64,000 nt of DNA, taken from Dehalococcoidia bacterium. Lineage in GTDB: Bacteria > Chloroflexota > Dehalococcoidia > GIF9 > AB-539-J10. Below the pieces are notes generated by a model. The model had not been told where the DNA came from. It did no database searches and worked only from the letters and a program-made list of their open reading frames with translations. The DNA lies in NCBI GenBank assembly GCA_021157895.1, contig JAGGVQ010000006.1, positions 8,393-72,392 on the forward strand. Direction: 5' to 3'. The position numbers were made by a program, and so were the translations under genes. This document shows, one piece after another, positions 21,890-58,423 of the stretch (within the stretch, counting starts at the first letter, position 1; every line of letters starts with the position of its first letter).

Positions 21890-21890
21890 C

Positions 21891-22835
21891 TTGGATTTAT
21901 TGCTTTATGGTCTTGACTTGCTGGTGTTCATCGGCATCTTTGGCATATTGGCTATATCTCTGAACTTGGAGTTTGGTTTTTCGGGCCTGGCTAACTTTGG
22001 TAAAGTTGCCTTTTTCCTTATTGGTGCTTATACCTATGCCTTGCTGTCCCAGATTGGTCTTCCCTTTTATCTCTGTCTTATTTCTGGGGCACTGGTTGCC
22101 GCTATCTTTGGCCTACTCATTTCCTTGCCGGCGCTGAGATTGCGCGCTGATTACCTGGCCATAGTAGTGCTTGCCTTTGGAGAGATACTAAGGTTGATTG
22201 TTAAATCTGAGGCTTGGCTCGCCGGGGGGGATTGGGGGCTGAGTGTGTCTCCAGCTATTTCTATAACTGGGGTTTCTCCCCGTGTTGATCTCCTGGTGAA
22301 CATAGCCCTGGTGTTTTCCTGCCTGCTTATTTGTTTTGTTGTCGCCCAATTGCTGTCCAATTCTCCCTATGGGCGTGTGATAAGAGCGATAAGGGAAGAT
22401 GAGGTTGCTGCTGAGGCCCTGGGGAAGAACAGGGCGAGGTATAAAGTCCAGATCTTTATGCTGGGCTCTGCTATGGCGGGGGTGGCTGGGGGGCTGTATG
22501 CTCAATATCTCCAGGCGATAGTGCCCATGCTATTTTTGCCCATAATCACGTTTACTATCTGGATAATGGTTCTTGTAGGGGGGCCAGCGAACAATTGGGG
22601 AGTGCTGGTGGGTGCTGCGCTGGTGGAGGTATTTGAGAGAGGGGCAAATATTGCCAAGGATTATATTGCCCTTCCCATTGATCCTAGTAACTTGCAATAT
22701 ATCCTGTTTGGTGTTTTAATCCTTCTGGTTTTATTTTATCGGCCTCAAGGGTTGTTTAAGGAAATCCCCATTAAGACCAGAGCTCTGGAGGCAGTTCGCC
22801 ATGCGAGAGAGCAGATCAAGGGTGAAGGGGGCTAG
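21891..22835 (+). CDS. livM: Branched-chain amino-acid ABC transporter permease (LivM-like).
   Basis: Permease fold, 2 nt after livH. Confidence 0.85.
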   Translation: MDLLLYGLDLLVFIGIFGILAISLNLEFGFSGLANFGKVAFFLIGAYTYALLSQIGLPFYLCLISGALVAAIFGLLISLPALRLRADYLAIVVLAFGEILRLIVKSEAWLAGGDWGLSVSPAISITGVSPRVDLLVNIALVFSCLLICFVVAQLLSNSPYGRVIRAIREDEVAAEALGKNRARYKVQIFMLGSAMAGVAGGLYAQYLQAIVPMLFLPIITFTIWIMVLVGGPANNWGVLVGAALVEVFERGANIAKDYIALPIDPSNLQYILFGVLILLVLFYRPQGLFKEIPIKTRALEAVRHAREQIKGEGG

Positions 22836-22977
22836 TAGAGTACTTGTTATGTTTTTCTCAGCTTGTTCCTTCCTGAAAATGTAGTTCAGTAAATGCTAAC
22901 TTTCGGGGGTTTGTTATTTAGCTTAAAGGTATAATATATTTCAACAGGTAATATATATCACTAAAAGAGAACTTATT

Positions 22978-23745
22978 ATGCCAGAAGAAGAATTGTTGAA
23001 AATAGAAGAGCTTAGCAAGCACTTTGGTGGTGTTTACGCGGTCAGCGGGGTGAGCCTAGATGTGAGGAAGGGGGGGATCTGGGGTTTGGTGGGCCCGAAT
23101 GGCAGTGGCAAGAGCACCCTATTCAATACTATCCTGGGTCTGTATCGACCGGATGGTGGCTGTATCTATTTCAATGGCAGGAAGATAAATAACCTGAGTT
23201 CCCATCAGATTTACGGATTGGGAATTGTCAATTCTTTTCAGGTGCCACGTTTGTTTTTTCAGATGAGTGTTATGGATAACATGCTGGTGGCGGCGCGAGG
23301 ACACCAGGGGGATGGACTGTTTAATAGCTTGTTCCTCAGGGGGGGATGGCAGAGCCAGGAAAGAGAATTGATTGACAGAGCCCTGGAGTTTATTGAACTG
23401 GTGGAGTTAGGGAAGATGGTTTTTGCCCTGGCAGGAGAGCTATCGGGAGGCCAGAGAAAGCTCCTGGAGCTGGCTCGAGGCCTCATGGCTAAGCCCAGAT
23501 TGTTGCTCCTGGACGAGCCTGCAGCGGGGGTTAATCCTGTGGTGGGAAAGAAAATATTTCAGAAGCTACAGACCTTATCTAAGAATGGCACAACTTTTTT
23601 TGTGGTTGAGCACCGACTGGAGATATTGTTCAATTTTGCCTCCTGGGTGTATGTCATGGATCGAGGGAAAATGGTGACTCAGGGACAGCCTGAGAAAATA
23701 GTTGATGATCCCGCCTTCTATCAGGCGTATCTGGGGGCAGAATAG
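22978..23745 (+). CDS. livG: ABC transporter ATP-binding protein (LivG-like).
   Basis: Walker A GPNGSGKST and the LSGGQ motif. A 142-bp gap with a TATAAT-like element precedes it. Confidence 0.9.
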   Translation: MPEEELLKIEELSKHFGGVYAVSGVSLDVRKGGIWGLVGPNGSGKSTLFNTILGLYRPDGGCIYFNGRKINNLSSHQIYGLGIVNSFQVPRLFFQMSVMDNMLVAARGHQGDGLFNSLFLRGGWQSQERELIDRALEFIELVELGKMVFALAGELSGGQRKLLELARGLMAKPRLLLLDEPAAGVNPVVGKKIFQKLQTLSKNGTTFFVVEHRLEILFNFASWVYVMDRGKMVTQGQPEKIVDDPAFYQAYLGAE

Positions 23746-24480
23746 GTGGACCCTCTCCTATTTGCTGAAGATATCCATGCCGGCTATGGCGATATAGTTA
23801 TTGTACATGATGTTTCGCTCAGGGTAGAGCCTGGGGAAATTGTGGCTGTTATTGGACCTAACGGAAGTGGCAAGTCCACTCTGCTCAAGAGCATACTCGG
23901 ATTTGTTAAGTTGTTTCAGGGCAAAGTTTCTTATTGTGGCGAGGAGATTACTGGCGTATCCTCGGATCGGATTGTTGGGCTTGGCATTGGTTATGTCCCA
24001 CAGGTAAATAATGTTTTCCCCAACCTGACCATTAGTGAAAATTTGGACATGGGAGCGTACCAGGTACGGGGCAGAGCTTCTGTCAAGGCGAGTATGGAGG
24101 AGATGTTTTCCTTATTTCCCGAGCTTGCGCTGAGAAAGCGTTCTTTGGCGGGAAACATGTCGGGGGGCGAAAGGCAAATGCTGGCTGTAGCCCGTGCTCT
24201 GATGGCCCGACCCAGGGTCATATTCCTGGATGAGCCCCTGGCATCCCTGTCTCCCAAGCCTGCCTCCATCATTCTGTCCAAGTTACAGGAGATAAAGCAG
24301 AGTGGTGTGGCCATGGTGATAGTGGAGCAGGATGTCACCAGAGTTTTGAGTGTTTCCCAGCGAGCTTATGTCTTGGTCAATGGTGCCATTGCCATGGAAG
24401 GGAACGCTGAGTCACTGTTCAAGGAAGAGTCAGCCAAGCAGCGATATTTAGGCCTGCATGCAAAAGCTGTTGACAAATAA
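23746..24480 (+). CDS. livF: ABC transporter ATP-binding protein (LivF-like).
   Basis: Walker A GPNGSGKST and the MSGGERQ motif. Confidence 0.9.
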   Translation: MDPLLFAEDIHAGYGDIVIVHDVSLRVEPGEIVAVIGPNGSGKSTLLKSILGFVKLFQGKVSYCGEEITGVSSDRIVGLGIGYVPQVNNVFPNLTISENLDMGAYQVRGRASVKASMEEMFSLFPELALRKRSLAGNMSGGERQMLAVARALMARPRVIFLDEPLASLSPKPASIILSKLQEIKQSGVAMVIVEQDVTRVLSVSQRAYVLVNGAIAMEGNAESLFKEESAKQRYLGLHAKAVDK

Positions 24481-24536
24481 TCATACCTGAGTGCACAATT
24501 CCCCCTAACTTTATTAAGACATTAAGGAGGTATGTT

Positions 24537-25718
24537 ATGTGGAAGAAGGTTGTTATGTTCCTGTCTCTTGTAGCCTTGGTTATCCCTGCAGTAGCCTGTG
24601 GTGAGCCAGCGGAGGCGGAGACCATCAAGATTGGTGTTGTACTGGACACCTCTGGTGATCTTGGTTCTATGGGAGTCAGAATAATGCAGGGCGCCGAGCT
24701 GGCTGCTGATGAGATTAATGCTGCGGGAGGGGTGTTGGGTAAGAACGTGGAATTAGTGGAGGAGGATGGTCAAACAGATCCGCGGAAAGGATTTGATCGT
24801 GTTAAGAAGCTGGTAGAGGTAGATGGGGTGCAGGTGGTTACTGGACCCATGATTACCGGGGCTTCACTGTTAGCCATTCCCTATGCGGAGACTCACCAGG
24901 TTCCGCTGATCAGCCCCTCGGCTACAGGTATTCCCCTTTCCAGTGTTGATGGCACGGAGTGGTTTTTCCGTACCTGCCTGCGCGATGATGTCCAGGGACA
25001 GGTGTTGGCCGACATTATCGTGGATAAGGGATACTCCAGATTTGCTGCCATAGTGCTGGATAACACTTATGGTAAGGGGCTGGAAGAGGCCATCATGGAT
25101 AGACTTGAGGCGGTTAACTGGACAGGAGAACAGGTTGCCTCGATACACTATGCGGGGGCTACTAAGGATTACCGCACGGAACTGCAGCAAATTAAGGATG
25201 CTGCCCCCGATGTGATATTCTGCTGTTCTTACTGTGATGACGGTATTTTAATCTTCAAGCAGGCTTCTCAATTAGGTTTGGATGATATTGCCTGGCTGGG
25301 CTGTGACGGCAACTATGGCTCGGGCCTTTTTGCTGACAACACTTCCGCGGCTTTCATGGAGAAGGCTCTTGTTGCTGGTACACGGACGGTTGGTTCGGGA
25401 TCAGCTTATGATAGCTTTGCTCCGGCATATAATGAAGCCTATGGAGAAGATCCTGAAGTCTATTGTGACACCATGTATGATGCTGTCTGGGCAGCGGCAA
25501 AGGCCATAGAGGCTGCGGGCACCTATGATGGTGAGGCCATCAGGGTTGCCTTGACTGAACTGGAGTTTGATGGAGCTACTGGGCCGATTAGCTTTAGCGA
25601 GATTGGTGACCGTAGTTCTGGCACCTGGGAGATTTGGGATGTTGTGAAGGATGCCAATACCACGTCCGGTTACAAGAACCATACTGTGGAGATAGTCACC
25701 TGGAGTGCGGAGGAATAA
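24537..25718 (+). CDS. ABC transporter substrate-binding lipoprotein (LivK/Leu-Ile-Val-binding family).
   Basis: Signal peptide with a lipobox (AVAC) and a type-I periplasmic binding fold. Confidence 0.8.
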   Translation: MWKKVVMFLSLVALVIPAVACGEPAEAETIKIGVVLDTSGDLGSMGVRIMQGAELAADEINAAGGVLGKNVELVEEDGQTDPRKGFDRVKKLVEVDGVQVVTGPMITGASLLAIPYAETHQVPLISPSATGIPLSSVDGTEWFFRTCLRDDVQGQVLADIIVDKGYSRFAAIVLDNTYGKGLEEAIMDRLEAVNWTGEQVASIHYAGATKDYRTELQQIKDAAPDVIFCCSYCDDGILIFKQASQLGLDDIAWLGCDGNYGSGLFADNTSAAFMEKALVAGTRTVGSGSAYDSFAPAYNEAYGEDPEVYCDTMYDAVWAAAKAIEAAGTYDGEAIRVALTELEFDGATGPISFSEIGDRSSGTWEIWDVVKDANTTSGYKNHTVEIVTWSAEE

Positions 25719-32295: not shown

Positions 32296-33672
32296 TTATT
32301 TATGTTCTTGTAATAGTTTATTGATGACATCAAGCATTTCTTGAGGGTTAAATGGCTTGGTGAAGTATTGATCAGCGCCTAACTCGGCACTAAGCTTGCG
32401 GTTTAATTCTTGATCTATAGCAGTTAGCATTATTATGGGAATTGACCTAGTTGCCGGGTTGGATTTAATTTCATGACATGCCTGCAGTCCATCTTTTTTA
32501 GGCATGAGAATATCCATGAGAATAACGGAAGGTGCTTCTCTTTGAGTAATTTCTACTGCCTCCTGGCCATTGGTTGCTTCGATGACAGTGTAGTCACTGC
32601 TCAGCATGCTTTTGGCTAGCATCCTGATGCTGGGCTCGTCATCTACGACTAATATTGTCTTCTTTTGTGGTACTAAATCAGCTGGTGCTAATTTAACAAA
32701 AGCCTTTGCAACAGTTGGATCAAATTGCTTACCAGTTCCATTGTCTATTTCGGCAAGTGCGGTCTCTCTGGACAACGCGGCTCGATATGGCCGAGCGGAT
32801 GTCATAGCATCGTACGCATCGGCTACAGACACAATCCTGGCAAGAAATGGAATGTTCTCCCCCCTGAGATTCTGATTAAGTCCGTTGCCATCGTAACGAT
32901 CGTGGTGATGTTCGATTATCCCAAGTATGTCTTTATTGGCAATTACTGTTCCTACTATACTGGCTCCCACTACGGTATGTGTCATGACATGGGTGTACTC
33001 TTCACGTGTCAACTTGCGAGGCTTATTGATAATGCATGGGTCTACGGCAATCTTACCGATGTCATGAAGCATACTGCCCCAACGAAGGTTTTCCATCTCT
33101 TCGTTGCTTAGATGTAGTGCGCTCCCGATGGCTAGGGAAAATTCAGTTACCCTGCGGGAATGCCCGGCAGTATATCTATCGTTGGCTTCCAGTGCGAAAG
33201 ACAGAGACCTCATAGCCCCAAGAGAAGTTTTACGAATCTGCTTTGCCTGTTCCTCAACTTTATTCTCTAAATGTTGTTTGTATTCTTGCAGGTCGCGTTC
33301 AAGCCTTCTTTTTTCCAGGGCTCTCTTTACACTCTGGATGACCACGTCGAGGTTGAATGGCTTGGTTATGTAGTCGTAAGCGCCCTGCCTGATAGTTTCA
33401 ATAGCAGTACCTATATCCTGGCTGGCGGTGGCCATGATAACCATGATGTCGGGATAGCATTCCTTGATTTGTGAGAGTAACTTGGTACCTGGTTGGTCTG
33501 GCATCACGATATCCAGAAGCACAAGGTCCACAGGGCTATTTTTTATCTGTTCTAGGGCTTGATCGGCAGTTGCTGCTTCCTCGCAGTGATATCCCTGCTT
33601 CTCCAGGATATGATGTAAGAGATTCCTGATGTTTTCCTCATCATCGACTATAAGAATGTTTCCCTTCTTCAT
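32296..33672 (-). CDS. Response regulator with REC - HD-GYP-like - REC architecture. The GYP motif is degenerate: it reads HHDRYDGNGLNQ.
   Basis: Two receiver domains (DDEEN...LDIVMPD and DDEPS...MDILMPKKDG) flank an HD domain (MLHDIGK, HHDRYDG). Confidence 0.8.
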   Translation of the reverse strand: MKKGNILIVDDEENIRNLLHHILEKQGYHCEEAATADQALEQIKNSPVDLVLLDIVMPDQPGTKLLSQIKECYPDIMVIMATASQDIGTAIETIRQGAYDYITKPFNLDVVIQSVKRALEKRRLERDLQEYKQHLENKVEEQAKQIRKTSLGAMRSLSFALEANDRYTAGHSRRVTEFSLAIGSALHLSNEEMENLRWGSMLHDIGKIAVDPCIINKPRKLTREEYTHVMTHTVVGASIVGTVIANKDILGIIEHHHDRYDGNGLNQNLRGENIPFLARIVSVADAYDAMTSARPYRAALSRETALAEIDNGTGKQFDPTVAKAFVKLAPADLVPQKKTILVVDDEPSIRMLAKSMLSSDYTVIEATNGQEAVEITQREAPSVILMDILMPKKDGLQACHEIKSNPATRSIPIIMLTAIDQELNRKLSAELGADQYFTKPFNPQEMLDVINKLLQEHK

Positions 33673-33973
33673 AACTAAGTTTAATCTAAGATAGAGGAGT
33701 TGAGCATCGCCTATTGGTACTGAAATGAAGAGGGAATTTAGTACTAGGGATTATGTGAGACACAGAGCACAGGTTTAGGGGGAGCAAGCAGCCAGAAGCG
33801 TACGACCTGGATTTGTTCCTATTAAGAAAAGCTAGGGGGCTTTGCGTGGGAGTAGTGTTAAAAGTGAGGGATAATACTGCTTCACATGTAGGCTAGGTAT
33901 TTTATAGGACGTGTATTTATCTACTCGAGGCTTTGTCCACTGTAGCTGTATATGGCATAATGTAACGGCCTGT

Positions 33974-34062
33974 GGAGGGATCGCATAGAGGTCTAGTGCG
34001 GGCGCCTGCTAAGCGCTTACTCCGAGCAATCGGGGTCGTGGGTTCAAATCCCACTCCCTCCG
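33974..34062 (+). tRNA. tRNA-Ser (anticodon GCT) with a long variable arm. No CCA is encoded.
   Basis: Acceptor GGAGGGA/TCCCTCC, anticodon loop CUGCUAA, a long extra arm and T-loop GGTTCAAATCC. Confidence 0.85.
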
Positions 34063-35138
34063 CCGTTCTTCAGCTTTCCCTTCAGAAAATCGATTGCCTT
34101 CACTGGCGTGGGGTCAGTTCCATATAGCATGGCCAGATAATAGCTTGTCCAGTCACCGAGAAATACCAGGCTCATCATCTGGCTCAGGTCGTCAGTTCCC
34201 TTACTGTTGACTATCTGGTGTTCCACTCCGGCGTTGCTCAGCATCTGGCTGGTTATCGTGTAGCGTGCCTGTATCCTTGGGTGTAGCGAGGGACACCGCA
34301 GCAGAATCACATATATGTCAGGTGACATTTCGTGAGGGAATTCGTACCCGACTACGGAATTATGGTTGAGCTCGGATAAGGTTTCATAGAAGGCCCATGC
34401 CTTGCTGTTTTCGTTGAATTGTCCTTTCCATCTTCGAGCTACCGGTGATAGCGTGCCTGCCCCGTATATCACAATAATTTTTCCTGCCAGTTTCTGTGCC
34501 AGCTGCTTGGCAGGGTTAGCAGATTCAGGAACATTCTCTGCCAGATCTGCTAGGGAAGATTCCAGAATTTGAGCCATTTCCTGCACCTCCTGGGATTTAT
34601 CGGGCAGAAAGCTTAGTTGAGAGAGTAAGGCGATAAGAGGAATGAAGCTGTATCCCAGGGCAGCTCGTGGCGCTGAAATGTAATCTATGGTGAATGTGGG
34701 TATTCCATTATCCCGCGCTAACTGTTTTACCTTACCATTGGTGGTGAAGGCTACTTTCTTGCAATCTGTCTTCAGGGCTTGCTGGAAGGCAGAGAGAGTT
34801 TCCTCGGTGTTTCCTGAGTAGCTGGAGATGACTACCAGTGTTTTATCATCGGCCCACGAAGGTAAGCCGTATTCGCGGTTGACGAAGACTAGGGGTTTAT
34901 TCAGTCTGGATGTCAAACTGCGGAGAAGGTCGCCACCAATAGCGGAACCCCCCATGCCACAAATCACGATTTTATTGATGTCCTGGAATTCGCGGGGCAA
35001 ATGTAGCTCATTGGCTTTATTCCAGGCTTGCCTGATCTGCTGTGGCAAGTTGTGCAGGTGAGTGCGCATGCCGTCGGGGTCATATCGTTGGTATGTCTCT
35101 GCTTGGTCCAGATTTATCCTGTTGCTATATGCGGACAA
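34044..35138 (-). CDS. Bifunctional phosphoglucose/phosphomannose isomerase (SIS-domain type).
   Basis: SIS-domain motifs (GMGGSAIGGDL). The 3' end overlaps tRNA-Ser by 19 nt on the opposite strand. Confidence 0.75.
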   Translation of the reverse strand: MSAYSNRINLDQAETYQRYDPDGMRTHLHNLPQQIRQAWNKANELHLPREFQDINKIVICGMGGSAIGGDLLRSLTSRLNKPLVFVNREYGLPSWADDKTLVVISSYSGNTEETLSAFQQALKTDCKKVAFTTNGKVKQLARDNGIPTFTIDYISAPRAALGYSFIPLIALLSQLSFLPDKSQEVQEMAQILESSLADLAENVPESANPAKQLAQKLAGKIIVIYGAGTLSPVARRWKGQFNENSKAWAFYETLSELNHNSVVGYEFPHEMSPDIYVILLRCPSLHPRIQARYTITSQMLSNAGVEHQIVNSKGTDDLSQMMSLVFLGDWTSYYLAMLYGTDPTPVKAIDFLKGKLKNGGGSGI

Positions 35139-36552
35139 TTTTCCTGCCCTCCCCTAATAGTTTGACCACTTTATCAGGGCTTTCCGCTTCAGCATAGATG
35201 CGAACCAGCGGCTCGGTACCAGAAAATCTAATGAGTAGCCAGGATTTGTTTTCCAGATAGAATCGGAAGCCGTCAGCAGTATTGACTTTGGTTACTTTGA
35301 TGCTACCCACGGAGTCGGGAGGGTTTGTGGTTAACTGATTGGTAATGGATTGGCGCTTATCCCGACCTATGGTGATATCGATACGGTCATAAAAGTGGGG
35401 GCCAACCTTGCTGTAGAGGTAGTCCAGCAATTGTGATGGGGTTTTTCCTGTTTTGGCCATGAAATCGATGAAATATAGCCCGGCAAGAATGCCATCTCTC
35501 TCGGGGATGTGGCCTTTGAAGCCGTAACCACCACTCTCCTCCCCACCAATCAGGGCATTTTCCCTGAGTATTACTGGGGCAACATATTTGAAGCCAACAG
35601 GTGTTTCGTATACCGGGACATCAAATATTTCGCCCAGCTTGGCGATCATATCAGTTGATGTCAGTGTCTTAACCATGGCGCCTCGCTCGCCGCGAATCTC
35701 TAGCAAATACAGGCATAACAGGGCGAAAACTTGGTGCTGATTCAAGAATTTGCCATGTTCATCTATAATCCCCAGGCGATCAGCATCCCCGTCGGTCGCG
35801 AGGCCGACATTGGCTTTTTGTTTTACCACCAGCTTTGATAATCGGCTCAAGTTTTTTGCGATGGGCTCCGGCTGGATTCCGGGGAACAAGGGGTTTCTCT
35901 CGTTGTTGATTTCCCACAGTGTGATGTTTCCATCACTTAGCAACGTTTTGAAGTAGCCAATTCCGGCACCATACATGGGGTCAATTGCTATTGTTATCTG
36001 ATGGCTTAGCAACTCCTTTACATCCACCAGCTTATTTATTTGTTTAAAGTATGCTGGTGATGGGTCAAGATAGTTTATTAACCTCTGGTTAACTCCCTTA
36101 TCGATAGCTAGCCTTTTTATTTTCCTATCGTGGGAGATGCGGGCGATGTTTGCCTCTATTTGATTGGTGACCTCGACAGGAGCGCTGGCCCCATCCTGTG
36201 ACTTGTACTTCAGTCCGTTCCATGCCCCGGGATTATGACTGGCAGTGATGATGATAGCTCCAGCAGCCTTAGTTTTTCCCACTGTATAGCTTACTACGGG
36301 GGTTGGTGCTGGTTTGGAGCACAGGTAGACTGTTATGTCATTGCCGGCAATTATTTCTGCGGCGGCAGCGGCGAAGTTCTCCGAGCCAAAGCGCGTATCA
36401 TAGCCAATTACCAGACCCTGTTCTCCCAGTTCTCCTGCCTTGAGGTAATCGGCTATCCCTTGGGCGCACAAGCGCACATTGTCAAAGGTAAAGTCCTCGG
36501 CGATTATGGCTCTCCAGCCATCGGTGCCAAACTTAATCTCTGCTTTAGCCAT
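35125..36552 (-). CDS. Phosphohexomutase (phosphoglucomutase/phosphomannomutase family).
   Basis: GTDGWR N-terminus, the active-site TASHNP motif and full length. Confidence 0.85.
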   Translation of the reverse strand: MAKAEIKFGTDGWRAIIAEDFTFDNVRLCAQGIADYLKAGELGEQGLVIGYDTRFGSENFAAAAAEIIAGNDITVYLCSKPAPTPVVSYTVGKTKAAGAIIITASHNPGAWNGLKYKSQDGASAPVEVTNQIEANIARISHDRKIKRLAIDKGVNQRLINYLDPSPAYFKQINKLVDVKELLSHQITIAIDPMYGAGIGYFKTLLSDGNITLWEINNERNPLFPGIQPEPIAKNLSRLSKLVVKQKANVGLATDGDADRLGIIDEHGKFLNQHQVFALLCLYLLEIRGERGAMVKTLTSTDMIAKLGEIFDVPVYETPVGFKYVAPVILRENALIGGEESGGYGFKGHIPERDGILAGLYFIDFMAKTGKTPSQLLDYLYSKVGPHFYDRIDITIGRDKRQSITNQLTTNPPDSVGSIKVTKVNTADGFRFYLENKSWLLIRFSGTEPLVRIYAEAESPDKVVKLLGEGRKIVRI

Positions 36553-36631
36553 ATAGCTTCACTCTCTAGCTATAAATTATAACAGATAGTAGCAATAGCA
36601 TAGCTAACAAGCAGTCATCATTGATCTTGGC

Positions 36632-37840
36632 TTATAGTCCTGCATCAGTGTGTAAGGCCTCGACCATGTCTGTCTTTTCCCAGGGCAAGTCCAGGTCTTC
36701 CCGTCCAAAGTGGCCGTAGGCAGATACCTGGCGATACATAGGGCGACGCAAGCCCAGTTTGTCTATGATAGCCTGGGGGCGAAAGTCGAAGTGCTTTTTC
36801 ACGAGGTGTAATATTGCCTCGTCGGGCATTTTACCTGTTCCTGATGTTTCGATGGATATTGATAGGGGGTGTGCCTTGCCGATGGTATAGGCCACCTGAA
36901 TTTCCAATGAGTCAGCCAGTCCTGCTGCCACGATGTTCTTGGCCGCGTACCTGGCCATGTAACTGGCGGAGCGATCTACTTTAGAGGGATCCTTGCCGGA
37001 GAAGCAGCCGCCACCGTTTCGGCAGGCGCTCCCGTAGGTATCCACTATTATCTTTCGCCCCGTGAATCCTGTGTCTGACACTGGTCCTCCAATACTGAAT
37101 TCACCAGCACTGTTGATATAAATTTGAGTATCTTTTCTCATTAGCTCAGGTGTAATGGTCTTATTGATAACTTCCTGGATCAGGTCGCGCTCGATTACCT
37201 TATGTTCCACTCCGGGGTCGTGTTGGGCAGCAACTACAATGGAAACTACCTTTCTGGGCTTGCCCTGGCTATATTCTACGGTTATCTGTGATTTACCATC
37301 GGGACGCAGATAAGGTATCGTTCCATCCTTTCTTACCTGGGCCAGTCGGCGACATATTTTATGTGCTAGGGAGATAGGCAAGGGCATGAGCTCTGGCGTC
37401 TCTCGACAGGCGAAGCCCGCCACCATCCCCTGATCTCCAGCCCCAGTTTTATCTTGTTCATCTTTGGCATCTCCGCTCCTGACTTCCAGGGAGGAGTTAA
37501 CTCCATCGGAGATATTGCTTGACTGTTCCTTGACCGATACCAGGATGCCACAGTTCTGGTAGTTGAATCCATATTCCGGATGGGTATAGCCAGCTTCCTT
37601 GATAACCTGGCGCGCGATATCAGGAATGTCTATGTAGCAGTCACAGGTAATCTCTCCCATAACTATGACCAGTCCCATGGCAACAGCCACCTCGCAGGCA
37701 ACACGGCCCATGGGATCCTTCGCCAGTATAGAGTCGAGGATGGCATCTGATATCTGGTCGCAGAGTTTATCGGGATGTCCTTCAGTGACAGATTCCGAGG
37801 TAAACAAATATGAGTCTGACTTATTAAATGTATTGGTCAT
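36632..37840 (-). CDS. metK: S-adenosylmethionine synthase.
   Basis: [22 protein letters not shown] signature. Confidence 0.97.
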
Positions 37841-37847
37841 TTTTCCT

Positions 37848-40657
<2,810 letters not shown>

Positions 40658-40674
40658 TGTCTATTATCCTTAAA

Positions 40675-41196
40675 TCATAATTGGAGCCTTGGTTGACACT
40701 TGGCACAGAATATAGCTTTCTTGTAATCAGTATCCGCCAGGCTATTAGAGAAGTGCATGATGCACCTGGAATTGGGGCAATGCCCCAGCCCGAAGGTGTG
40801 TCCTAATTCATGGACTATTTCCTTGGTGGCCCTCTCCAGACACAGAGCCTCATCGCGAGGCAGGCCATAGTATTCCTGTCTCAAGCGACAAAGGGATATT
40901 ACGGTGGTATGAGAGAGTATATTCGCTTGGCCAAAGACAAAGCTGAACCTGGGAGCGTACAGGTCGACTTCAGTAATGCCTATGACCCGGTCATCATCTC
41001 CCCCCCCTTTTTTATCCAGCAAGGAAATTAGATCTGTAGCGAGATATTGATTTCGTTCTGCATTATAGGCATGCTCGGGAACTGCTATGGCCGACTCTAT
41101 GTTCACGGGGCACCCGAAAATATGGCTTGTTCTGGTCTTTAGTTGGCCCATGATATCCTGTGCTATATCACCCAGTGGCACCAAATTTATCCTCAT
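40675..41196 (-). CDS. amzA: Archaemetzincin-family zinc metallopeptidase.
   Basis: HELGHTFGLGHC...C...C...C signature (HEXXHXXGX3C plus a CxxC tail). Confidence 0.85.
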   Translation of the reverse strand: MRINLVPLGDIAQDIMGQLKTRTSHIFGCPVNIESAIAVPEHAYNAERNQYLATDLISLLDKKGGGDDDRVIGITEVDLYAPRFSFVFGQANILSHTTVISLCRLRQEYYGLPRDEALCLERATKEIVHELGHTFGLGHCPNSRCIMHFSNSLADTDYKKAIFCAKCQPRLQL

Positions 41197-41696
41197 TGTG
41201 TTTCCAGCCAGATCAGGATTTCTGCCAGCACTTGCCTGTGGTTGTTCTCTGTGACCTGTAGGGTTTTAACTCCAGGGAGATTTTTAATTTTCACAGCGAA
41301 GGGGTGGTAACCTGACATAATAGTTCCCAATATCTTGATATTACTGCTCATCGCTTGGGTTACTGCTTGTTGGAATTCTTCTGAGAGAAGCTCCATCTTG
41401 CCGATTTCATCAATCACGATAAGGCTATTTCCCTGTGTTGCCTGGCGTAATGCTGTCACTCCCACCCTGTTAAAATTGTTGATATAAACACCATATTTAC
41501 CTACTCGATGCGGGCTTGGGCTGTCAACATGTGCCAGAATAGCACTCTGACCATCAAGAGTAACGATGCGGAATCCCTGCCGCGAACTCCCTGTGCGTAT
41601 TTCCTCGGTGTAAAAACCACCGCACTTAATTGAGGTGGAGTCCAGAACTTCCTTGACCAGAATGGTTTTACCTGTGCCTGGCCTGCCGGTTAACAA
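41193..41696 (-). CDS. THEP1-type nucleoside-triphosphatase (archaeal-like).
   Basis: TGRPGTGKT P-loop, GFYTEEIR...GFRIVTLDG and DEIGKMEL motifs matching the THEP1/MJ1559 family. It has a TTG start and overlaps amzA by 4 nt. Confidence 0.8.
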   Translation of the reverse strand: MLTGRPGTGKTILVKEVLDSTSIKCGGFYTEEIRTGSSRQGFRIVTLDGQSAILAHVDSPSPHRVGKYGVYINNFNRVGVTALRQATQGNSLIVIDEIGKMELLSEEFQQAVTQAMSSNIKILGTIMSGYHPFAVKIKNLPGVKTLQVTENNHRQVLAEILIWLETQ

Positions 41697-41710
41697 CAGG
41701 GCGTGGGCGC

Positions 41711-41830
41711 TTATTTATCCGCACCCTCCTGGCTGTCAACTGGTTGTGTTGCTGCCAGCTTTCTCTTGTTTTCCAGCTTCTTCGCACGTCGGAGGTGCTT
41801 CATTTTTGCCATTCGTTTGGCTTTATTCAT
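41711..41830 (-). CDS. Unannotated 39-aa strongly basic ORF: MNKAKRMAKMKHLRRAKKLENKRKLAATQPVDSQEGADK.
   Basis: Its ATG overlaps the TGA stop of the upstream gene (ATGA). It exactly fills the gap between the MetE-like gene and the NTPase, and it is below the ORF-track length cut-off. Confidence 0.4.
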   Translation of the reverse strand: MNKAKRMAKMKHLRRAKKLENKRKLAATQPVDSQEGADK

Positions 41831-42858
41831 TCTACATACTTCTCTCTCATGCTAGCAGATAGCTCTGCCAGTATATGTAATGCTTCGCTTGCCGCCTCTG
41901 TGGACATACCGGCTAATCCCGATGAAGGGGTTAGCAGGCTCTGAGCTACGACTTGCCTGAAGTTGATGCCATCCCTGGTGAAGGGAAGCATCGCTTCGCT
42001 GAGGCGGTCTCTCAAGCTCGCCACGGATTCTTCTGCCAGCTTATCTTCCTCGTGTGGGACTATTCCCCACCCGATTACCCCTCCACGCTTGAGGAAGGAT
42101 ACTACCTCGCTGGGATAAGCCTCCAGGGAACTGGCATTGTTATAAGTGTCGAAGCTCAGGATATCGATGCTTGTGGCGAGGAGAAGTGGCCAGTTGGCAT
42201 CTCCACAGCAATAGATTCCTTTTATGCCCTTGATACCCTGCAGCACTTCCTCCAGCAAGCTGGTAACTATTTCCGGAGGAATGATAGTTGAATCCAGGGA
42301 TGTGAGGCGAGGTTCATCAATAAATATTATGGGATGGAGAGCTGCCTCATTCAGAACGTTATCCTGCCAAGCAGCCTTTAAGCGCAAAAACTTGGCTATG
42401 ACTGGAGCTAAGACCTGGTTGTAAATGATAGCTTTGCCGTTATTATCCTTAATTGTTAGACCCCATGATATTGGGCCAGTAACTTGTCCTTTAACCCACT
42501 CTAGGCCTGAGGCGTTGGACAGGAAGAAATGAAGTCCTTCAGCATAGTCCTCAGACATACTGTATTTGCCAAATACCTCTTGTTTTGCGTCATCCTGTAT
42601 CTGGTTTAGGAGGGCAGTGAAATTTGATGGGGGTTCGATATATGCTTTGTCCTCTATTACTACAGCTCCCGGAAAACCCTCGCTAAATTGGACATACATG
42701 TTTTCTGTGAAGGTGCGGTTGGGTAGCTGGGGCCATGCAGGAATTTCGGGCAGGTACCTCATAATAGTTGAATATGCCTCTATCACGTCAGTATGTGGCA
42801 TACAGCCAAGCGCCGTTGGCAGACAATTAAACTCTTGTTCAGACATTGTTTCCTCCAT
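41827..42858 (-). CDS. Short (343-aa) URO-D/CIMS-superfamily protein resembling the cobalamin-independent methionine synthase catalytic domain (archaeal-type short MetE).
   Basis: IIFIDEP and CCGD motifs aligned to the MetE C-terminal zinc site. It sits inside the methionine/SAM-cycle cluster. Confidence 0.5.
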   Translation of the reverse strand: MEETMSEQEFNCLPTALGCMPHTDVIEAYSTIMRYLPEIPAWPQLPNRTFTENMYVQFSEGFPGAVVIEDKAYIEPPSNFTALLNQIQDDAKQEVFGKYSMSEDYAEGLHFFLSNASGLEWVKGQVTGPISWGLTIKDNNGKAIIYNQVLAPVIAKFLRLKAAWQDNVLNEAALHPIIFIDEPRLTSLDSTIIPPEIVTSLLEEVLQGIKGIKGIYCCGDANWPLLLATSIDILSFDTYNNASSLEAYPSEVVSFLKRGGVIGWGIVPHEEDKLAEESVASLRDRLSEAMLPFTRDGINFRQVVAQSLLTPSSGLAGMSTEAASEALHILAELSASMREKYVE

Positions 42859-43717
42859 CCAGGTATTTCTCCAACAATAGGTGGAGTTGTTCCCTGGTTT
42901 CTAATGGTATATCTTGTGGAGCGGTCACCAGTGCATCCTGGAGAACTGAGGGGCAGGAGCAGTTTTGCTCCTCCGGGATAAGAGGAATGGCGAGCTGTAG
43001 TATGTTCTCAGCGGCCGTAATCCCTTTCTCAAGGTTGGCTAACACTATATCCGCAGTCACCGATTTGTATTGGGGATGCCAGCAATCATAGTCTGTAACA
43101 AGAGCCAGCATGATATAGCACATCTCAGCCTCTCGGGCCAGTTTAGCTTCTGGCAATGTGGTCATCACGATGATGTCTGCGCCCCATTCTCGATACATGT
43201 GTGATTCAGCACGGGTGGAAAACTGGGGTCCTTCCATCACTAAGCAGGTGCCTCCATTGTGAAAGTTGGCGTTGGCCCTTCTAGCTGCTTGCTCAAGCGC
43301 ATGTCGCAACTCGGGGCAGAAAGGCTCAGCTAAGGCAATATGTGCCACCGCTCCATTGGTGAAAAAGGTATTGTTCCTGTTACTGGTGTGGTCAATAAGC
43401 TGGTCCGGGATAACGATATCCAGGGGGTGGATATCTTCTCTGAGACTGCCCACGGCACTTACGGCAATGACTCTTTCCACGCCCAGGGACTTAAGGGCGT
43501 AGATATTAGCCAGGGCTGGTAATTCGCTGGGACTTATACGGTGCCTCCTACCATGTCGGGGAAGAAAAGCAACCCGTCTTCCCTGAATGGTGCCAATAGT
43601 TATAATATCACTGGGCGCACCAAATGGGGTAACTATATCTGCCTCCTCCACATCCTCTAATCCCTCCAAGTGATACAGTCCGCTGCCACCAATGATTGCT
43701 ATATCAGCATCAGGCAT
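42839..43717 (-). CDS. mtnP: S-methyl-5'-thioadenosine phosphorylase.
   Basis: PNP/MTAP fold with an N-terminal IAIIGGSGL. A Cys-containing C-terminal extension is present. Confidence 0.85.
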   Translation of the reverse strand: MPDADIAIIGGSGLYHLEGLEDVEEADIVTPFGAPSDIITIGTIQGRRVAFLPRHGRRHRISPSELPALANIYALKSLGVERVIAVSAVGSLREDIHPLDIVIPDQLIDHTSNRNNTFFTNGAVAHIALAEPFCPELRHALEQAARRANANFHNGGTCLVMEGPQFSTRAESHMYREWGADIIVMTTLPEAKLAREAEMCYIMLALVTDYDCWHPQYKSVTADIVLANLEKGITAAENILQLAIPLIPEEQNCSCPSVLQDALVTAPQDIPLETREQLHLLLEKYLDGGNNV

Positions 43718-43821
43718 AAACTTCCCTAATTATACCTGTATGGTGATATTTAGCAAGGATTTGCTCGAGTGGCATCAAGTTTGCCTGGTATCTCCTTTCG
43801 AGGGCCAGTTCTTTTCTCTCG

Positions 43822-44013
43822 TTATTCTTGTTTCCGGAAGGGTTTTCCTGGCACCTGCAGGTTGAATCCAGTTTTTGAGGCGAAGTTGGATATCAGCTTC
43901 TCTCCCTCGGCATTGCATATAGGGCAATAAGCAGGTTTGTTGAAGTCAGAAAAGGGCCGCTTGAGCTCAAATTCCTTCTTGCATTTGGGGCACCAATACT
44001 CATATGTAGGCAT
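43822..44013 (-). CDS. FmdB-family zinc-ribbon protein.
   Basis: MPTYEYWCPKC...CPIC pattern in a 63-aa protein. Confidence 0.8.
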   Translation of the reverse strand: MPTYEYWCPKCKKEFELKRPFSDFNKPAYCPICNAEGEKLISNFASKTGFNLQVPGKPFRKQE

Positions 44014-44028
44014 ATCACAACCTCCTTA

Positions 44029-45069
44029 TCAGATTTCCTTGACTACCATGTTTGGCAAAGCCTGTTTATACGGTGATTTAATTATACCCCTTTCGGTGAT
44101 GATGGCGCTAACGTAGTTATGTGGTGTTATGTCGAAAGAGGGGTTCAGGGCTACAGTTCCCCGCGGTGCAATGCGGGTGCCAGAGAAGAGAGTTACCTCC
44201 TCGGGATTCCTGTGTTCAATGGATATCTGATCTCCTGTTGTCATTGTGAGGTCAAAGGTGCTTGTTGGGGCTGCAACATAAAAGGGAATGCTATTCTCCT
44301 GGGCTAACACTGCCAGGGAATAGGTGCCGATCTTGTTGGCGGTATCGCCATTGGCAGCGATTCTGTCAGCGCCAACAATAACACAATTGATTTTCTTCTG
44401 GTGCATGAGATATCCTGCCATGGAGTCGGTAATCAATGTGGCAGGAATATTTTCTTGCTGTAGCTCCCATATGGTAAGTCGTGCTCCCTGGAGAAGGGGA
44501 CGGGTTTCCGTGGCGATAACATCTACCTTTTTTCCTTGCTTTACGGCGGTCTTGATTATGCCCAGGGCAGTGCCATAACCACCTGTTGCCAGGGAACCGG
44601 TGTTGCAATGGGTGAGTATGGTAAAGTCATCGCTGATAAGCTCAGCGCCGAACTGGCTCAGTTGTCTGCTGGCGGCAATTTCCTCATGGTGAATGCTTGT
44701 GGCTTCATGCCGCAGTGCGCTGTTTATGTCATATATGGATTCTCGGCTGGCGGCTGCTTTTGTCATCCGGGCGAGAACGTGGAACAGGTTTACGGCTGTT
44801 GGTCTGGTCGCGGCGAAGGTCTGCATAATCAGATTTAGCTGTGTGATGAACTCGGTGGGAGAGCTTGTCCTTATGCCCTGTGCTCCCAGCACGATGCCAT
44901 AGGCGGCAACGATGCCAATGGCTGGGGCTCCTCGCACTTTCATCTCTCTAATGGTTGAAGCTACATCTTGATAACTGGATAGCTCCAAGTATCTTTCCTG
45001 CCAGGGAAGAGCGCTTTGGTCTAATATCCTTAGCTTGTTATCCTGCCACTCTATGGCGCGAATCACCAT
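44029..45069 (-). CDS. mtnA: Methylthioribose-1-phosphate isomerase.
   Basis: eIF-2B/MtnA family signature (GAPAIGIVAAYG...) and full length. Confidence 0.85.
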   Translation of the reverse strand: MVIRAIEWQDNKLRILDQSALPWQERYLELSSYQDVASTIREMKVRGAPAIGIVAAYGIVLGAQGIRTSSPTEFITQLNLIMQTFAATRPTAVNLFHVLARMTKAAASRESIYDINSALRHEATSIHHEEIAASRQLSQFGAELISDDFTILTHCNTGSLATGGYGTALGIIKTAVKQGKKVDVIATETRPLLQGARLTIWELQQENIPATLITDSMAGYLMHQKKINCVIVGADRIAANGDTANKIGTYSLAVLAQENSIPFYVAAPTSTFDLTMTTGDQISIEHRNPEEVTLFSGTRIAPRGTVALNPSFDITPHNYVSAIITERGIIKSPYKQALPNMVVKEI

Positions 45070-45182
45070 TTGTCCTGCGAAGCCATAATAGTATAATAGA
45101 AATCGCAGCCATAGATGAAATTAGCGACATTATCTGACGCCGAGCATTAAGGCTTGAATATTGTAAAAGGAGATGAAATAAC

Positions 45183-46517
45183 ATGAGAGTTTGTATCGTA
45201 GGTGGGGGTGGGGGTGCCAGTAATGCTGTTAATGTAATTCACAATCTGGATGGTGAATCACAAATTGATGTGTTCGATAAGCGGGGGGAAATAGGTTATG
45301 AGCCATGTGAGATTCCTCAGGTATTGAATGGGTTTTTGCCTGCCTGGCAGGATATAACAGTATTCCGACCGAAATATTACCGGGACAGGAATACCACGGT
45401 GCACCTTAATACTGAGGTCACCGATATTATTCCTGGGGAAAAATGTATAGTGGCTGGCGGCCAGAGCTACGGCTACGATAAGCTTATACTGGACCTTGGC
45501 TCTGTCTCGGTTATCCCTCCTATTCCTGGGCTGGATGGCAGGAATGAATTTATGTTGGATACCAGCCTGGAGACTGCCAGGTTGTTCCAAGAGGCTGTGC
45601 CCAATTATTCTACTGCGGCTATTGTGGGTGCCGGGCAAATTGGTGTGGAGGCAGCAGCGGTGCTGAAGAGTCGGGGTTACAAAAACATATATATGCTGGC
45701 GAGGCACGGCAGCACTTTCCGAGCACAGCTAGATAAGGAGATGTCGGCAGTTATAGAGCGTAGAATAGAAGGAGAGGGAATAGAGTTGATACTGTCGTCT
45801 GATATTCAGGGCATAAGTAGTCGTGGCGACAGAAAGATTGTATCTCTCCCTGGCAGGGAGTTAGAAGTTGACCTGGTATTCTTTGCCACTGGAGCGAAGC
45901 CCAATGTGGACCTGGCGCGGAGAGCGGGCATCAGGATCGGGGAAACAGGGGCTATTGCTGTGAATACCTATTTGCAGACCAGTGAGCCTGATATTTATGC
46001 CATCGGTGATTGTATGGAGAACTGGGATAGAGTTACAGGAACAACGAGAATTTATCAAACCGCTACATCGGGAGCTACTGAGGGCAGGATAGCGGCGAAT
46101 AACTTGATGCTGGGCGATGTTTTGCCACACCAGGGCACGGTGATGACATTTATTACTGATGTCTTTGGATATGAGGTGGGGGCAGTGGGTTTCACTGAGA
46201 CCAGTGCTAAGAATCTTGGCTTTGACATTGTCTCACATGTTATGAGGACAGCAACCAGGCGGCGTTCTTATGGTGGTAAGAGAATACATATCAAGCTTGT
46301 TGCTGATCACAAGACCCAAACGTTGATGGGAGCCCAGATTATCTCACCTGAAATGGTGGCCGGTAAGCTTGATAGACTTGCCCTGGCTATTGCAGAGCGG
46401 GTACCTATCCCAGAGTTAGCCCTGATTGATACCTGTTATTCCCCAACAGTGGGATCAGCCTATGAGTCGACCGTTATGGCGCTGGACCAGCTGATGGCCA
46501 AACTCAGGGAGAAGTAG
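45183..46517 (+). CDS. FAD-dependent pyridine nucleotide-disulfide oxidoreductase (CoA-disulfide reductase/NADH oxidase-like, single active-site Cys).
   Basis: GGGGGASNA FAD motif, a PCEIP single-Cys motif and a second Rossmann fold. Confidence 0.75.
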   Translation: MRVCIVGGGGGASNAVNVIHNLDGESQIDVFDKRGEIGYEPCEIPQVLNGFLPAWQDITVFRPKYYRDRNTTVHLNTEVTDIIPGEKCIVAGGQSYGYDKLILDLGSVSVIPPIPGLDGRNEFMLDTSLETARLFQEAVPNYSTAAIVGAGQIGVEAAAVLKSRGYKNIYMLARHGSTFRAQLDKEMSAVIERRIEGEGIELILSSDIQGISSRGDRKIVSLPGRELEVDLVFFATGAKPNVDLARRAGIRIGETGAIAVNTYLQTSEPDIYAIGDCMENWDRVTGTTRIYQTATSGATEGRIAANNLMLGDVLPHQGTVMTFITDVFGYEVGAVGFTETSAKNLGFDIVSHVMRTATRRRSYGGKRIHIKLVADHKTQTLMGAQIISPEMVAGKLDRLALAIAERVPIPELALIDTCYSPTVGSAYESTVMALDQLMAKLREK

Positions 46518-56763: not shown

Positions 56764-57444
56764 ATGGACGACATCGAAGGGAGAACAAAGAAAGTAGTGA
56801 TAATAGGGACGGGACATGTGTTTAACTTGAGAGGTAAGGTGAGAACTATAATCCATGATGTGGAACCGCAGGCGGTCTGTGTCGAACTTGATGATGGGAG
56901 ATATGAGGCTTTATTTCATGGTAGGGGCAGGTCGTTTCATCCTCTGGCTCTGTTGCAGGCGCTTATGGCCACTATCTATGGCACAGTTCCGGGAAATGAC
57001 ATGCTTGGTGGGATAGAGGGAGCAAGAGATATTGGGGCCGAACTGTTTTTAATAGATAAGGATATACGAGTTATCAAGAGAGGGCTTCGCCAGGCATTTA
57101 TATCGGAAATTTTGAATCCGGTTGAGATAGCAAGGAAGCTTGTGCGATTTCCACCCATCGCGTTATCTCGCCCACGTGCAATGTTGAATTTTGAGGATTC
57201 AGTAAAGGAGTTTGAGAAGGATCCAGAGAGATACAGGGATTTGTTGGGCAAGTCCTTTCCCCGAATTAGAAAGGTACTTTTGGATGACAGGGAAAGGTAT
57301 ATGGCAATCAGGGTAAAGGGAATACTGGAGAGGTTTGATGATATTGCTATTGTTACTGGGGCTGGACATGTGATTGGTTTACGGGGCCTCTTATCTGACT
57401 ATGATATCAGGGTGTTCTCCCTGACCACGTTACTCGGTGGTTGA
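56764..57444 (+). CDS. TraB/GumN-family protein.
   Basis: VVIIGTGHV...GAGHV signature. Confidence 0.65.
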   Translation: MDDIEGRTKKVVIIGTGHVFNLRGKVRTIIHDVEPQAVCVELDDGRYEALFHGRGRSFHPLALLQALMATIYGTVPGNDMLGGIEGARDIGAELFLIDKDIRVIKRGLRQAFISEILNPVEIARKLVRFPPIALSRPRAMLNFEDSVKEFEKDPERYRDLLGKSFPRIRKVLLDDRERYMAIRVKGILERFDDIAIVTGAGHVIGLRGLLSDYDIRVFSLTTLLGG

Positions 57445-58422: not shown

Positions 58423-58423
58423 G

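Follow-up and report, generated by a model that had tools for sequence, protein, structure and literature searches.

The window considered here, a stretch of 64,000 nucleotides from a Dehalococcoidia bacterium (contig JAGGVQ010000006.1), carries between positions 34044 and 45069 a cluster of twelve open reading frames (ORFs), all on the minus strand and in the order and at the coordinates given by the initial annotation. They run from mtnA to a bifunctional PGI/PMI gene (Table 1) and include metK and ahcY of the S-adenosylmethionine (SAM) cycle, mtnP and mtnA of 5'-methylthioadenosine (MTA) recycling, and a short MetE-like gene, mesB, which is the main subject of this report. As judged from its sequence, the MesB protein of this lineage is without the canonical Zn(His,Cys,Asp,Cys) site, yet it is a selected, MetE-like barrel encoded at its ancestral, translationally coupled position. 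The names proposed earlier for the genes of the cluster are supported by family models. MesB residues are numbered throughout according to the 343-aa ORF.

The window MesB itself has no Pfam, NCBIfam or PDB sequence match, even at E ≤ 10. With these direct family models blank, its identity is deduced from the names of its homologs, the literature, a profile match and a fold search. In a collection of 5.8 billion proteins, 3516 homologs were found at E ≤ 0.001, and an exhaustive search of representatives gave 1811 matches. The nearest homologs outside its own cluster are 57–61% identical (E ~1e-130), several of them being Dehalococcoidia proteins named methionine synthase (NCBI, JGI); no homolog falls between 62% and 90% identity. 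The profile of the family has a sole match in the PDB, MesD 3RPD, which is weak (E = 0.076) and aligns the DEP and H-x-C motifs. Methionine-synthase NCBIfam models do match six canonical relatives, though below threshold (E = 6e-11 to 0.07). The AlphaFold2 model of the window protein has a pTM of 0.77 and a mean pLDDT of 71, with residues 1–60 below 50. According to this model the protein would be a single domain (339/343 aa), a (beta/alpha)8 barrel resembling the C-terminal domain of MetE and devoid of a folate-binding domain, which is the architecture of MesB. Its gene also occupies the position of a mesB ortholog in the metK-ahcY operon of Dehalococcoidia. On these sequence and positional grounds, the 343-aa ORF is assigned to MesB/core-MetE as its positional ortholog.

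When the model was searched with Foldseek, the top 18 PDB matches were all MetE or MesD structures (E = 4e-8 to 3e-6). This ranking and the names of the homologs uphold the view of the initial annotation that this short protein is a homolog of core methionine synthases, here with a single domain. The resemblance to archaeal core MetE enzymes proposed there does not stand, as the protein, judged by its homologs and gene position, belongs to the bacterial MesB family and not to the archaeal MesA type. It was also considered that the protein could instead be a methyltransferase of the UROD family or of the MT2 type (methylcobamide:CoM). All these proteins share one barrel superfamily, and UROD structures (E = 3e-6 and weaker) and the MtaA-like 4AY7 of M. 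mazei (E = 1e-4) do appear at lower ranks of the Foldseek search. Such a grouping is nevertheless very improbable: MetE and MesD structures come first, the only profile match in the PDB is a MesD in which both DEP and HxC are aligned, the canonical relatives match methionine-synthase models, and no URO-D Pfam match is obtained even at E ≤ 10.

The four zinc ligands of E. coli MetE are His641, Cys643, Glu665 and Cys726, and its Ser433 binds the carboxylate of homocysteine (Price et al. 2021, PMC7857596). The initial annotation had called for a check of the zinc ligands, and this check revealed that two of the four, together with the serine for the homocysteine carboxylate, are replaced, so that the canonical site is not retained. 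The window protein reads I-Y216-C-C218-G ... F-D237 ... TPS-S313-GL where its relatives read L-H-C-C-G ... F-D ... TPS-C-GL, and its ligand set is thus neither the HCDC nor the HCEC of MesB proteins. In a first set of other homologs, 260 of 268 have the HCDC pattern and none has Tyr; in a second set HCDC is found in 117 of 120 and HCDD in the remaining 3. Outside the lineage, position 216 is His without exception: in 269/269 homologs of the first set, in 120/120 of the second and at 80/80 genome loci. The YCDS pattern was encountered only in the lineage of the window, among ~390 homologs and 80 genome loci. Residue 19, aligned with E. coli Ser433 in the motif LPTxIGSxPxT, is Ser in 96% of homologs and Cys in 0/269. 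At position 269, where Asn is found in 99% of 119 close relatives, His occurs in none of these 119 and in 1 of 150 distant homologs. The Asp181 of the DEP motif (homocysteine amino-group binding; equivalent to E. coli Asp599), the pair Cys217-Cys218 and Asp237 are retained.

Among 63 columns conserved at 85% or more in the family, the lineage differs at eight (S19C, G189D, H216Y, N220D, T221A, A238T, A263G and C313S), five of which are no more than four residues away from a zinc ligand (p = 0.011). In total, 22 differences from the consensus of the 119 close relatives (at least 90%) are fixed in the lineage, including the loss of His216 and Cys313 and the gain of Cys19 and His269. The replacements cluster at the predicted active site, with Cys19 and His269 modelled at the C-terminal ends of strands beside the ligand-bearing strands. 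The most variable site in the lineage is residue 184 (codon 42307-42309), next to DEP; close relatives have Tyr there (at least 90% of them), and the 13 lineage sequences Cys, His, Leu, Arg or Tyr. An unrelated Dehalococcoidales metagenome-assembled genome (L038:820-1845; MesB 47% identical), the only one of the 80 genome loci with Ser at 313, has independently undergone Cys313Ser and Ala238Thr, and keeps His216 and Asn269; by its sequence, this protein may represent a partial or intermediate state of ligand loss. A scan of metagenomes for K-G-x-Y-C-C-G...W variants returned 18 matches, none of them a MesB; the collection does not contain the lineage's own contigs, even though the window fits the pattern, and this result is hence uninformative.

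Sequencing or assembly error, or a decaying pseudogene, could be invoked for such a variant, the more so as it is limited to one narrow lineage with no sequences at 62–90% identity. All 13 full-length members of the 90%-identity cluster of the window protein carry Tyr216, Ser313 and Cys19. These sequences are independent: they stem from different samples and were contributed by four sources, JGI, ENA, Logan and NCBI (MCD6230418.1 and GCA_030621105.1 are among them). Three loci diverged at dS ~0.2–0.3 have the very same codons, TAT and TCG; TCG is two base changes away from any Cys codon (TGY), and the ORF is intact. The dN/dS of mesB is 0.165 between the window and a second locus of the lineage (L083), 0.15 between the window and a third (L085), and 0.20 between L083 and L085, within the range of the neighbouring genes (0.06–0.26); the binomial test against neutrality gives p = 3e-11. 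Moreover, of the 46 positions that vary within the lineage, only one is among the 63 family-conserved columns and 45 are among the 280 others (p = 5.5e-4). An artefact or pseudogene was rejected because of these changes shared by 13 sequences, the codons, a dN/dS of ~0.15–0.2 and the conservation of columns, and we regard it as a highly unlikely explanation. On this comparative evidence, MesB is under purifying selection in the lineage. A gene-specific acceleration of mesB was likewise rejected, its distance ratio being 1.14 versus 1.13 for mtnP and 1.19 for metK, with a similar value for the NTPase gene.

Table 1. Genes of the cluster and replaced codons of mesB, with positions in the window
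Feature	Coordinates	Strand	Evidence
mtnA, S-methyl-5-thioribose-1-phosphate isomerase, 346 aa	44029..45069	-	TIGR00512 445 bits (cut-off 279); PF01008
FmdB-type CxxC...CxxC zinc-ribbon protein, 63 aa	43822..44013	-	TIGR02605 57 bits (cut-off 31)
mtnP, 5'-methylthioadenosine phosphorylase (MTAP), 292 aa	42839..43717	-	TIGR01694 315 bits (cut-off 275)
mesB, MesB/core-MetE ortholog, ORF of 343 aa	41827..42858	-	homologs, MetE-like fold, positional orthology
Codon TGT, Cys19 replacing the homocysteine-carboxylate Ser (E. coli MetE Ser433 equivalent)	42802..42804	-	alignment
Codon TAT, Tyr216 replacing the invariant zinc-ligand His	42211..42213	-	alignment
Codon CAC, His269, lineage-specific gain, C-terminal end of predicted barrel strand 261-267	42052..42054	-	alignment and model
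Codon TCG, Ser313 replacing a zinc-ligand Cys (TPSCGL to TPSSGL)	41920..41922	-	alignment
Micro-ORF, highly basic peptide, 39 aa	41711..41830	-	N-terminal motif kept in other species
THEP1-type NTPase, TTG start, 167 aa	41193..41696	-	PF03266 1e-45; NF010248 163 bits (cut-off 156); PDB 1YE8 1.6e-28
Archaemetzincin-family Zn metalloprotease, 173 aa	40675..41196	-	NF033823 189 bits (cut-off 145); PF07998
Kinase fusion, weak APH-like phosphotransferase N-terminus and AAA_33 P-loop kinase, 516 aa	39107..40657	-	PF13671 5.8e-23; PF01636 6e-4
ahcY, S-adenosylhomocysteine hydrolase, 420 aa	37848..39110	-	TIGR00936 638 bits (cut-off 498)
metK, SAM synthetase, ORF of 402 aa	36632..37840	-	TIGR01034 533 bits (cut-off 309); three Pfam domains
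Phosphohexomutase, PGM/PMM/GlmM superfamily, 475 aa	35125..36552	-	four PGM_PMM domains
Bifunctional PGI/PMI, 364 aa	34044..35138	-	NF006426 377 bits (cut-off 295); PF10432

The genes of the cluster are tightly packed. From mtnA to the PGI/PMI gene, the intergenic distances are 15, 104, -8 (or -20), -4, 14, -4, 17, -4, 7, 79 and -14 nt. The coordinates agree with the largest gaps and the overlaps listed by the initial annotation, apart from the overlap of mtnP and mesB. A GGAGGA Shine-Dalgarno sequence is found 5 nt before the second ATG of mesB (42846), and the N-terminus of the family also aligns there; MesB is thus probably 339 aa long, judging from these features, and its overlap with mtnP would be 8 nt rather than 20. 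The upstream edge of the cluster is formed by a divergent gene for a pyridine-nucleotide-disulfide oxidoreductase. At the downstream edge, a convergent tRNA-Ser(GCT) gene (33974-34064, plus strand) shares 21 nt with the end of the PGI/PMI ORF; in a related genome (L107) the PGI/PMI is also 364 aa long. The metK of relatives is called at 391 aa, versus 402 aa for the ORF of the window. For the phosphohexomutase, the best NCBIfam model is Arch_GlmM with 301 bits, under the cut-off of 439. In an ENA assembly of the same strain, ahcY is split into two ORFs of 283 and 152 aa (L001:6119-7394); since the window and other assemblies carry the intact 420-aa gene, this split is probably an assembly frameshift.

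The locus was surveyed with a MesB alignment in GTDB genomes, each species being represented by one genome; this gave 80 loci, mostly in metagenome-assembled genomes of Dehalococcoidia and other Chloroflexota; the best match to the window MesB in this species set is 58% identical. The mtnP gene lies directly upstream of mesB in 43 of the 80 loci, and mtnA-mtnP-mesB...ahcY-metK occur in the order of the window in 12. All ten larger genes, including those for the phosphohexomutase and PGI/PMI, are found in the same order in two loci (L015 and L028). Because this synteny is conserved in other genomes, the arrangement is not due to chance. In D. mccartyi CBDB1, the characterised core methionine synthase cbdbA481 (343 aa) was found by inspecting the operon of metK (cbdbA476) and ahcY (cbdbA477), all known Dehalococcoidia were reported to be without metF, and D. 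mccartyi genomes without metE, metH and bhmt homologs (Deobald et al. 2020, PMC7005905). The family was later named MesB, membership being set at 173 bits or more to DET0516 (Price et al. 2021, PMC7857596). By its gene content and order, the cluster is therefore a conserved Dehalococcoidia gene cluster for the SAM cycle and MTA recycling, of an already known kind.

Several other genes accompany this core. Those for the NTPase, the archaemetzincin and the kinase fusion are conserved between mesB and ahcY in many Dehalococcoidia. The translation of the archaemetzincin contains the motif HELGHxxGxxHC...CxxC, and the kinase fusion matches PDB 2RHM, a 'putative kinase' (1e-3). For the NTPase ORF the sole possible start is a TTG (41694-41696), three codons before the Walker A glycine (LLTGRPGTGKT), so close that the first beta-strand of THEP1 homologs is nearly absent; the 167-aa form also occurs in related loci. 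The FmdB zinc ribbon between mtnA and mtnP was already noted in the initial annotation as an unexpected passenger, and it is indeed a lineage-specific insertion: among 89 loci it occupies this position only in those of the window's own lineage, and one further locus (L050) has it elsewhere. Its amino-acid sequence is identical in L083 (dN = 0), while the neighbouring proteins differ by 7–10%. This insertion is present in the same lineage whose MesB has lost two zinc ligands. The ATG of the micro-ORF overlaps the stop codon of mesB (ATGA). Its motif MNKxKRMAxLKHRRRxKKLxEKRK is found in 18 loci of other species (L007, L011, L028, L041 and others), always downstream of mesB and on the same strand; some of these relatives have an Ala/Lys/Pro-rich tail of 120–165 aa, with one weak AT-hook match. 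No Pfam or NCBIfam family corresponds to it. In view of this sequence conservation, the micro-ORF is a real conserved gene, predicted to encode a small basic protein. In five loci (L003, L010, L013, L014 and L018), a small Cys-rich ORF of 66–89 aa (DUF6485, E = 1.3e-8) separates mesB from the NTPase gene; the window has no such ORF.

The close packing of the twelve genes suggests that they are plausibly co-transcribed. They are co-directional with short gaps or overlaps, and internal terminator-like sites, which would have argued for several units if multiple, are at chance level (15 observed versus 12.7 ± 3.8 in shuffled sequences), only two of them, both weak, being on the minus strand. A SAM riboswitch or structured leader RNA was rejected, in line with the initial annotation, which had seen no SAM riboswitch: in the region 33000–46000, no Rfam family was found at E ≤ 1 except the tRNA and one sub-threshold match overlapping it, and the predicted folding of the three larger non-coding stretches is no more stable than that of shuffled sequences (z = -0.36, +0.66 and -0.79). 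An extended -10-like sequence, TGTTATAAT, is present in the gap between metK and the phosphohexomutase gene (36553-36631), and a TTGCTA-16-TATAAT match in that between the zinc-ribbon gene and mtnP (43718-43821). Promoter-like counts overall are at chance level. These TATAAT-like boxes in the 104-nt and 79-nt gaps could possibly be internal promoters delimiting separate transcription units. The link to hexose-phosphate enzymes proposed in the initial annotation thus stands in so far as the gene order is kept across genomes; it is positional, the boxes in the gaps leave room for separate units, and the tie of these enzymes to the SAM-cycle genes is one of gene order only.

From family assignments and established pathway knowledge, MetK would make SAM, and AhcY would split S-adenosylhomocysteine, the by-product of methyltransferases, into adenosine and homocysteine. 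A typical MesB/core-MetE re-methylates homocysteine from a methyl-corrinoid donor, the donor inferred in the literature being the CoFeSP of the Wood-Ljungdahl pathway. MtnP and MtnA would convert MTA to adenine and methylthioribulose-1-phosphate. The activated-methyl cycle claimed for this cluster is well founded for MetK and AhcY, both above equivalog cut-offs; its closure by MesB is unproven. With two zinc ligands and the serine for the homocysteine carboxylate replaced, this MesB may not close the cycle in the usual way. Methionine salvage had been called complete. Only its first two steps, MtnP and MtnA, both above their cut-offs, are present; MtnB/C/D/E, MtnW/X, RLP and an Ald2-type aldolase were found neither in the cluster nor in Pfam scans of the window, which covered about 60 of the 64 ORFs of at least 70 aa. 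Neither tblastn nor these scans detected a second mesB or another methionine synthase in the window, and Wood-Ljungdahl/acs genes, including those for AcsC and AcsD, were absent from the scanned ORFs. Elsewhere in the window, a gene for a PfkB-family sugar/nucleoside kinase is next to one for an inosine-uridine nucleoside hydrolase (57430–59440, minus strand), a pair that suggests nucleoside-ribose salvage, and five genes encode a LIV-type amino-acid ABC transporter (21002–25718, plus strand).

What, then, could MesB do in this lineage? The reading we tentatively favour, at a probability of roughly 40%, is that it would still be a corrinoid-dependent methyltransferase acting on a thiol, that of homocysteine, through a rebuilt metal site. 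The thiol-activating site could be rebuilt from the retained Cys218 and Asp237 and the gained His269, with the hydroxyl of Tyr216 possibly acting as a dissociable ligand. In the model, residue 269 comes two residues past strand 261–267, which lies between the strands bearing Asp237 and residue 313, and this strand order is why Cys218, Asp237 and His269 could form a three-ligand site; residue 19 ends the first strand, which adjoins the last one, in the poorly modelled segment 1–60. In protein farnesyltransferase, a zinc site made of Asp, Cys and His activates a thiol for alkylation. MetE (Glu), MetH (Asn) and BHMT (Tyr) usually have an oxygen ligand that leaves the metal when homocysteine binds. 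It is more doubtful, and argued here by analogy, that the metal ligands have migrated within the MetE-fold barrel in this precise manner, His216 and Cys313 being dropped and His269 and perhaps Cys19 recruited, to give a farnesyltransferase-like site that would still support corrinoid-dependent methionine synthesis. As a variant, a rebuilt Tyr/Cys/Asp/His site may carry out a new methyl-transfer chemistry linked to the coupled MTA-recycling genes. That homocysteine is still methylated is suggested by the ancestral operon position and the coupling to mtnP, by the 55 of 63 family-conserved columns that are kept, including DEP and KGQxTGP, by the need of a homocysteine sink, and by the reported lack of metE and metH in D. 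mccartyi and of metF in Dehalococcoidia.

A number of points weigh against a working rebuilt site. Serine binds zinc poorly, and tyrosine serves as a ligand of this metal only rarely. Ligand mutants of E. coli MetE reportedly lose zinc and activity (Zhou et al. 1999). Residue Ser19, for the homocysteine carboxylate, has changed as well, and the variability of residue 184 suggests a relaxed constraint on the substrate site. None of the three lineage members searched matched, at E ≤ 10, the archaeal methionine-synthase models to which the six canonical relatives retain a sub-threshold similarity. The placement of Cys19 and His269 comes from the strand order of the model, in which residues 1–60 have a pLDDT below 50, and that the 22 fixed changes include one new Cys and two new His is not strong in statistical terms. 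Lastly, MesB-like proteins of Chloroflexales with FSHG, YCDQ and YREQ at the ligand positions were judged non-enzymatic (Price et al. 2021, PMC7857596).

Many of these points could also mean that MesB has been repurposed or is non-catalytic, zinc-dependent methionine synthesis being lost. Methionine would then come from another synthase or from uptake, and the protein could act on a different substrate, bind a corrinoid protein or serve in regulation. We consider this the main alternative, still short of an even chance. Besides the replacement of two ligands and of the carboxylate-binding serine, the hypervariable residue 184 and the lost similarity to methionine-synthase models, it has the published precedent of Chloroflexales MesB-like proteins without zinc ligands, including the YCDQ pattern (PMC7857596), and purifying selection would be expected for a new function no less than for the old one. 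The kept operon position, translational coupling and conserved columns, among them DEP and KGQxTGP, speak against it, as does the continued requirement for a homocysteine sink where metK and ahcY are intact. All known Dehalococcoidia are also reported to be without metF, and D. mccartyi genomes without metE, metH or bhmt homologs (PMC7005905), and no other synthase was detected in the 64-kb window by tblastn or among the ORFs scanned. At the opposite end, the protein could be an ordinary canonical core-MetE/MesB methionine synthase that tolerates its substitutions and holds zinc at the original place. Homology, length, synteny and selection would all fit, and the fourth ligand may be dispensable: L038 combines Cys313Ser with an intact His216, and two MesB proteins were reported to have Asn there (Price et al. 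2021, PMC7857596). However, His216 is invariant in every other homolog examined, and only Cys218 and Asp237 are left of the original site, which makes this an improbable explanation.

For Dehalococcoidia, the cluster as such is textbook knowledge of little added value; the new part is a lineage-specific MesB with a remodelled active site. Annotation pipelines already call the protein 'methionine synthase' (e.g. MCD6230418.1), and metabolic reconstructions from that label would make these uncultured sediment bacteria methionine prototrophs whose methyl cycle is closed, a conclusion for which the active-site residues give no support. Should the enzyme still be functional, it would be a natural case of a thiol-alkylating zinc site rebuilt from other strands of the same barrel, useful for understanding or engineering the chemistry of MetE, MetH and BHMT-type enzymes. 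If it is not, it would point to an auxotrophy or to a new function that arose within a conserved operon, in parallel with the zinc-less MesB-like proteins of Chloroflexales.

The closest described counterpart of the window protein is D. mccartyi cbdbA481, which is alike in length (343 aa), in its single-domain MetE-like barrel, in its bacterial class and in its operon neighbours and their order (mesB ... ahcY, metK). The ligands of cbdbA481, His215, Cys217, Asp236 and Cys312 (PMC7005905), are colinear with positions 216, 218, 237 and 313 of the window protein. The window protein still has DEP, both adjacent Cys and the Asp ligand, whereas the first ligand has changed from His to Tyr, the fourth from Cys to Ser and the homocysteine-carboxylate residue from Ser to Cys, and His269 has been gained. 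The C-terminal domain of MetE and MesD (PDB 3RPD, 1XDJ, 4L6H and 4ZTX) are the best structural matches (Foldseek E = 4e-8 to 6e-7), and the DEP and H-x-C motifs align with 3RPD; in contrast, the window protein is only ~13–17% identical to them, has no folate-binding N-terminal domain and no Pfam Meth_synt match, and does not keep their zinc ligands. With protein farnesyltransferase, the likeness would be a chemical analogy by residue type and strand position only, in that Cys218, Asp237 and His269 could supply the same ligand set; neither the fold nor the substrates are related. The MesB-like proteins of Chloroflexales (Chloroflexus, Roseiflexus) also belong to the MesB family, in Chloroflexota, and have unconserved zinc ligands, their YCDQ pattern sharing Tyr, Cys and Asp with the window protein. 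Their hosts are phototrophs without the Wood-Ljungdahl pathway that have other methionine synthases (PMC7857596). The window protein, on the other hand, is 57–61% identical to canonical HCDC proteins of Dehalococcoidia and is encoded in the ancestral SAM-cycle operon. For these reasons the window variant, compared through the published patterns as Chloroflexales sequences are not among its closest 270 homologs, is on sequence grounds an independent and recent derivation.

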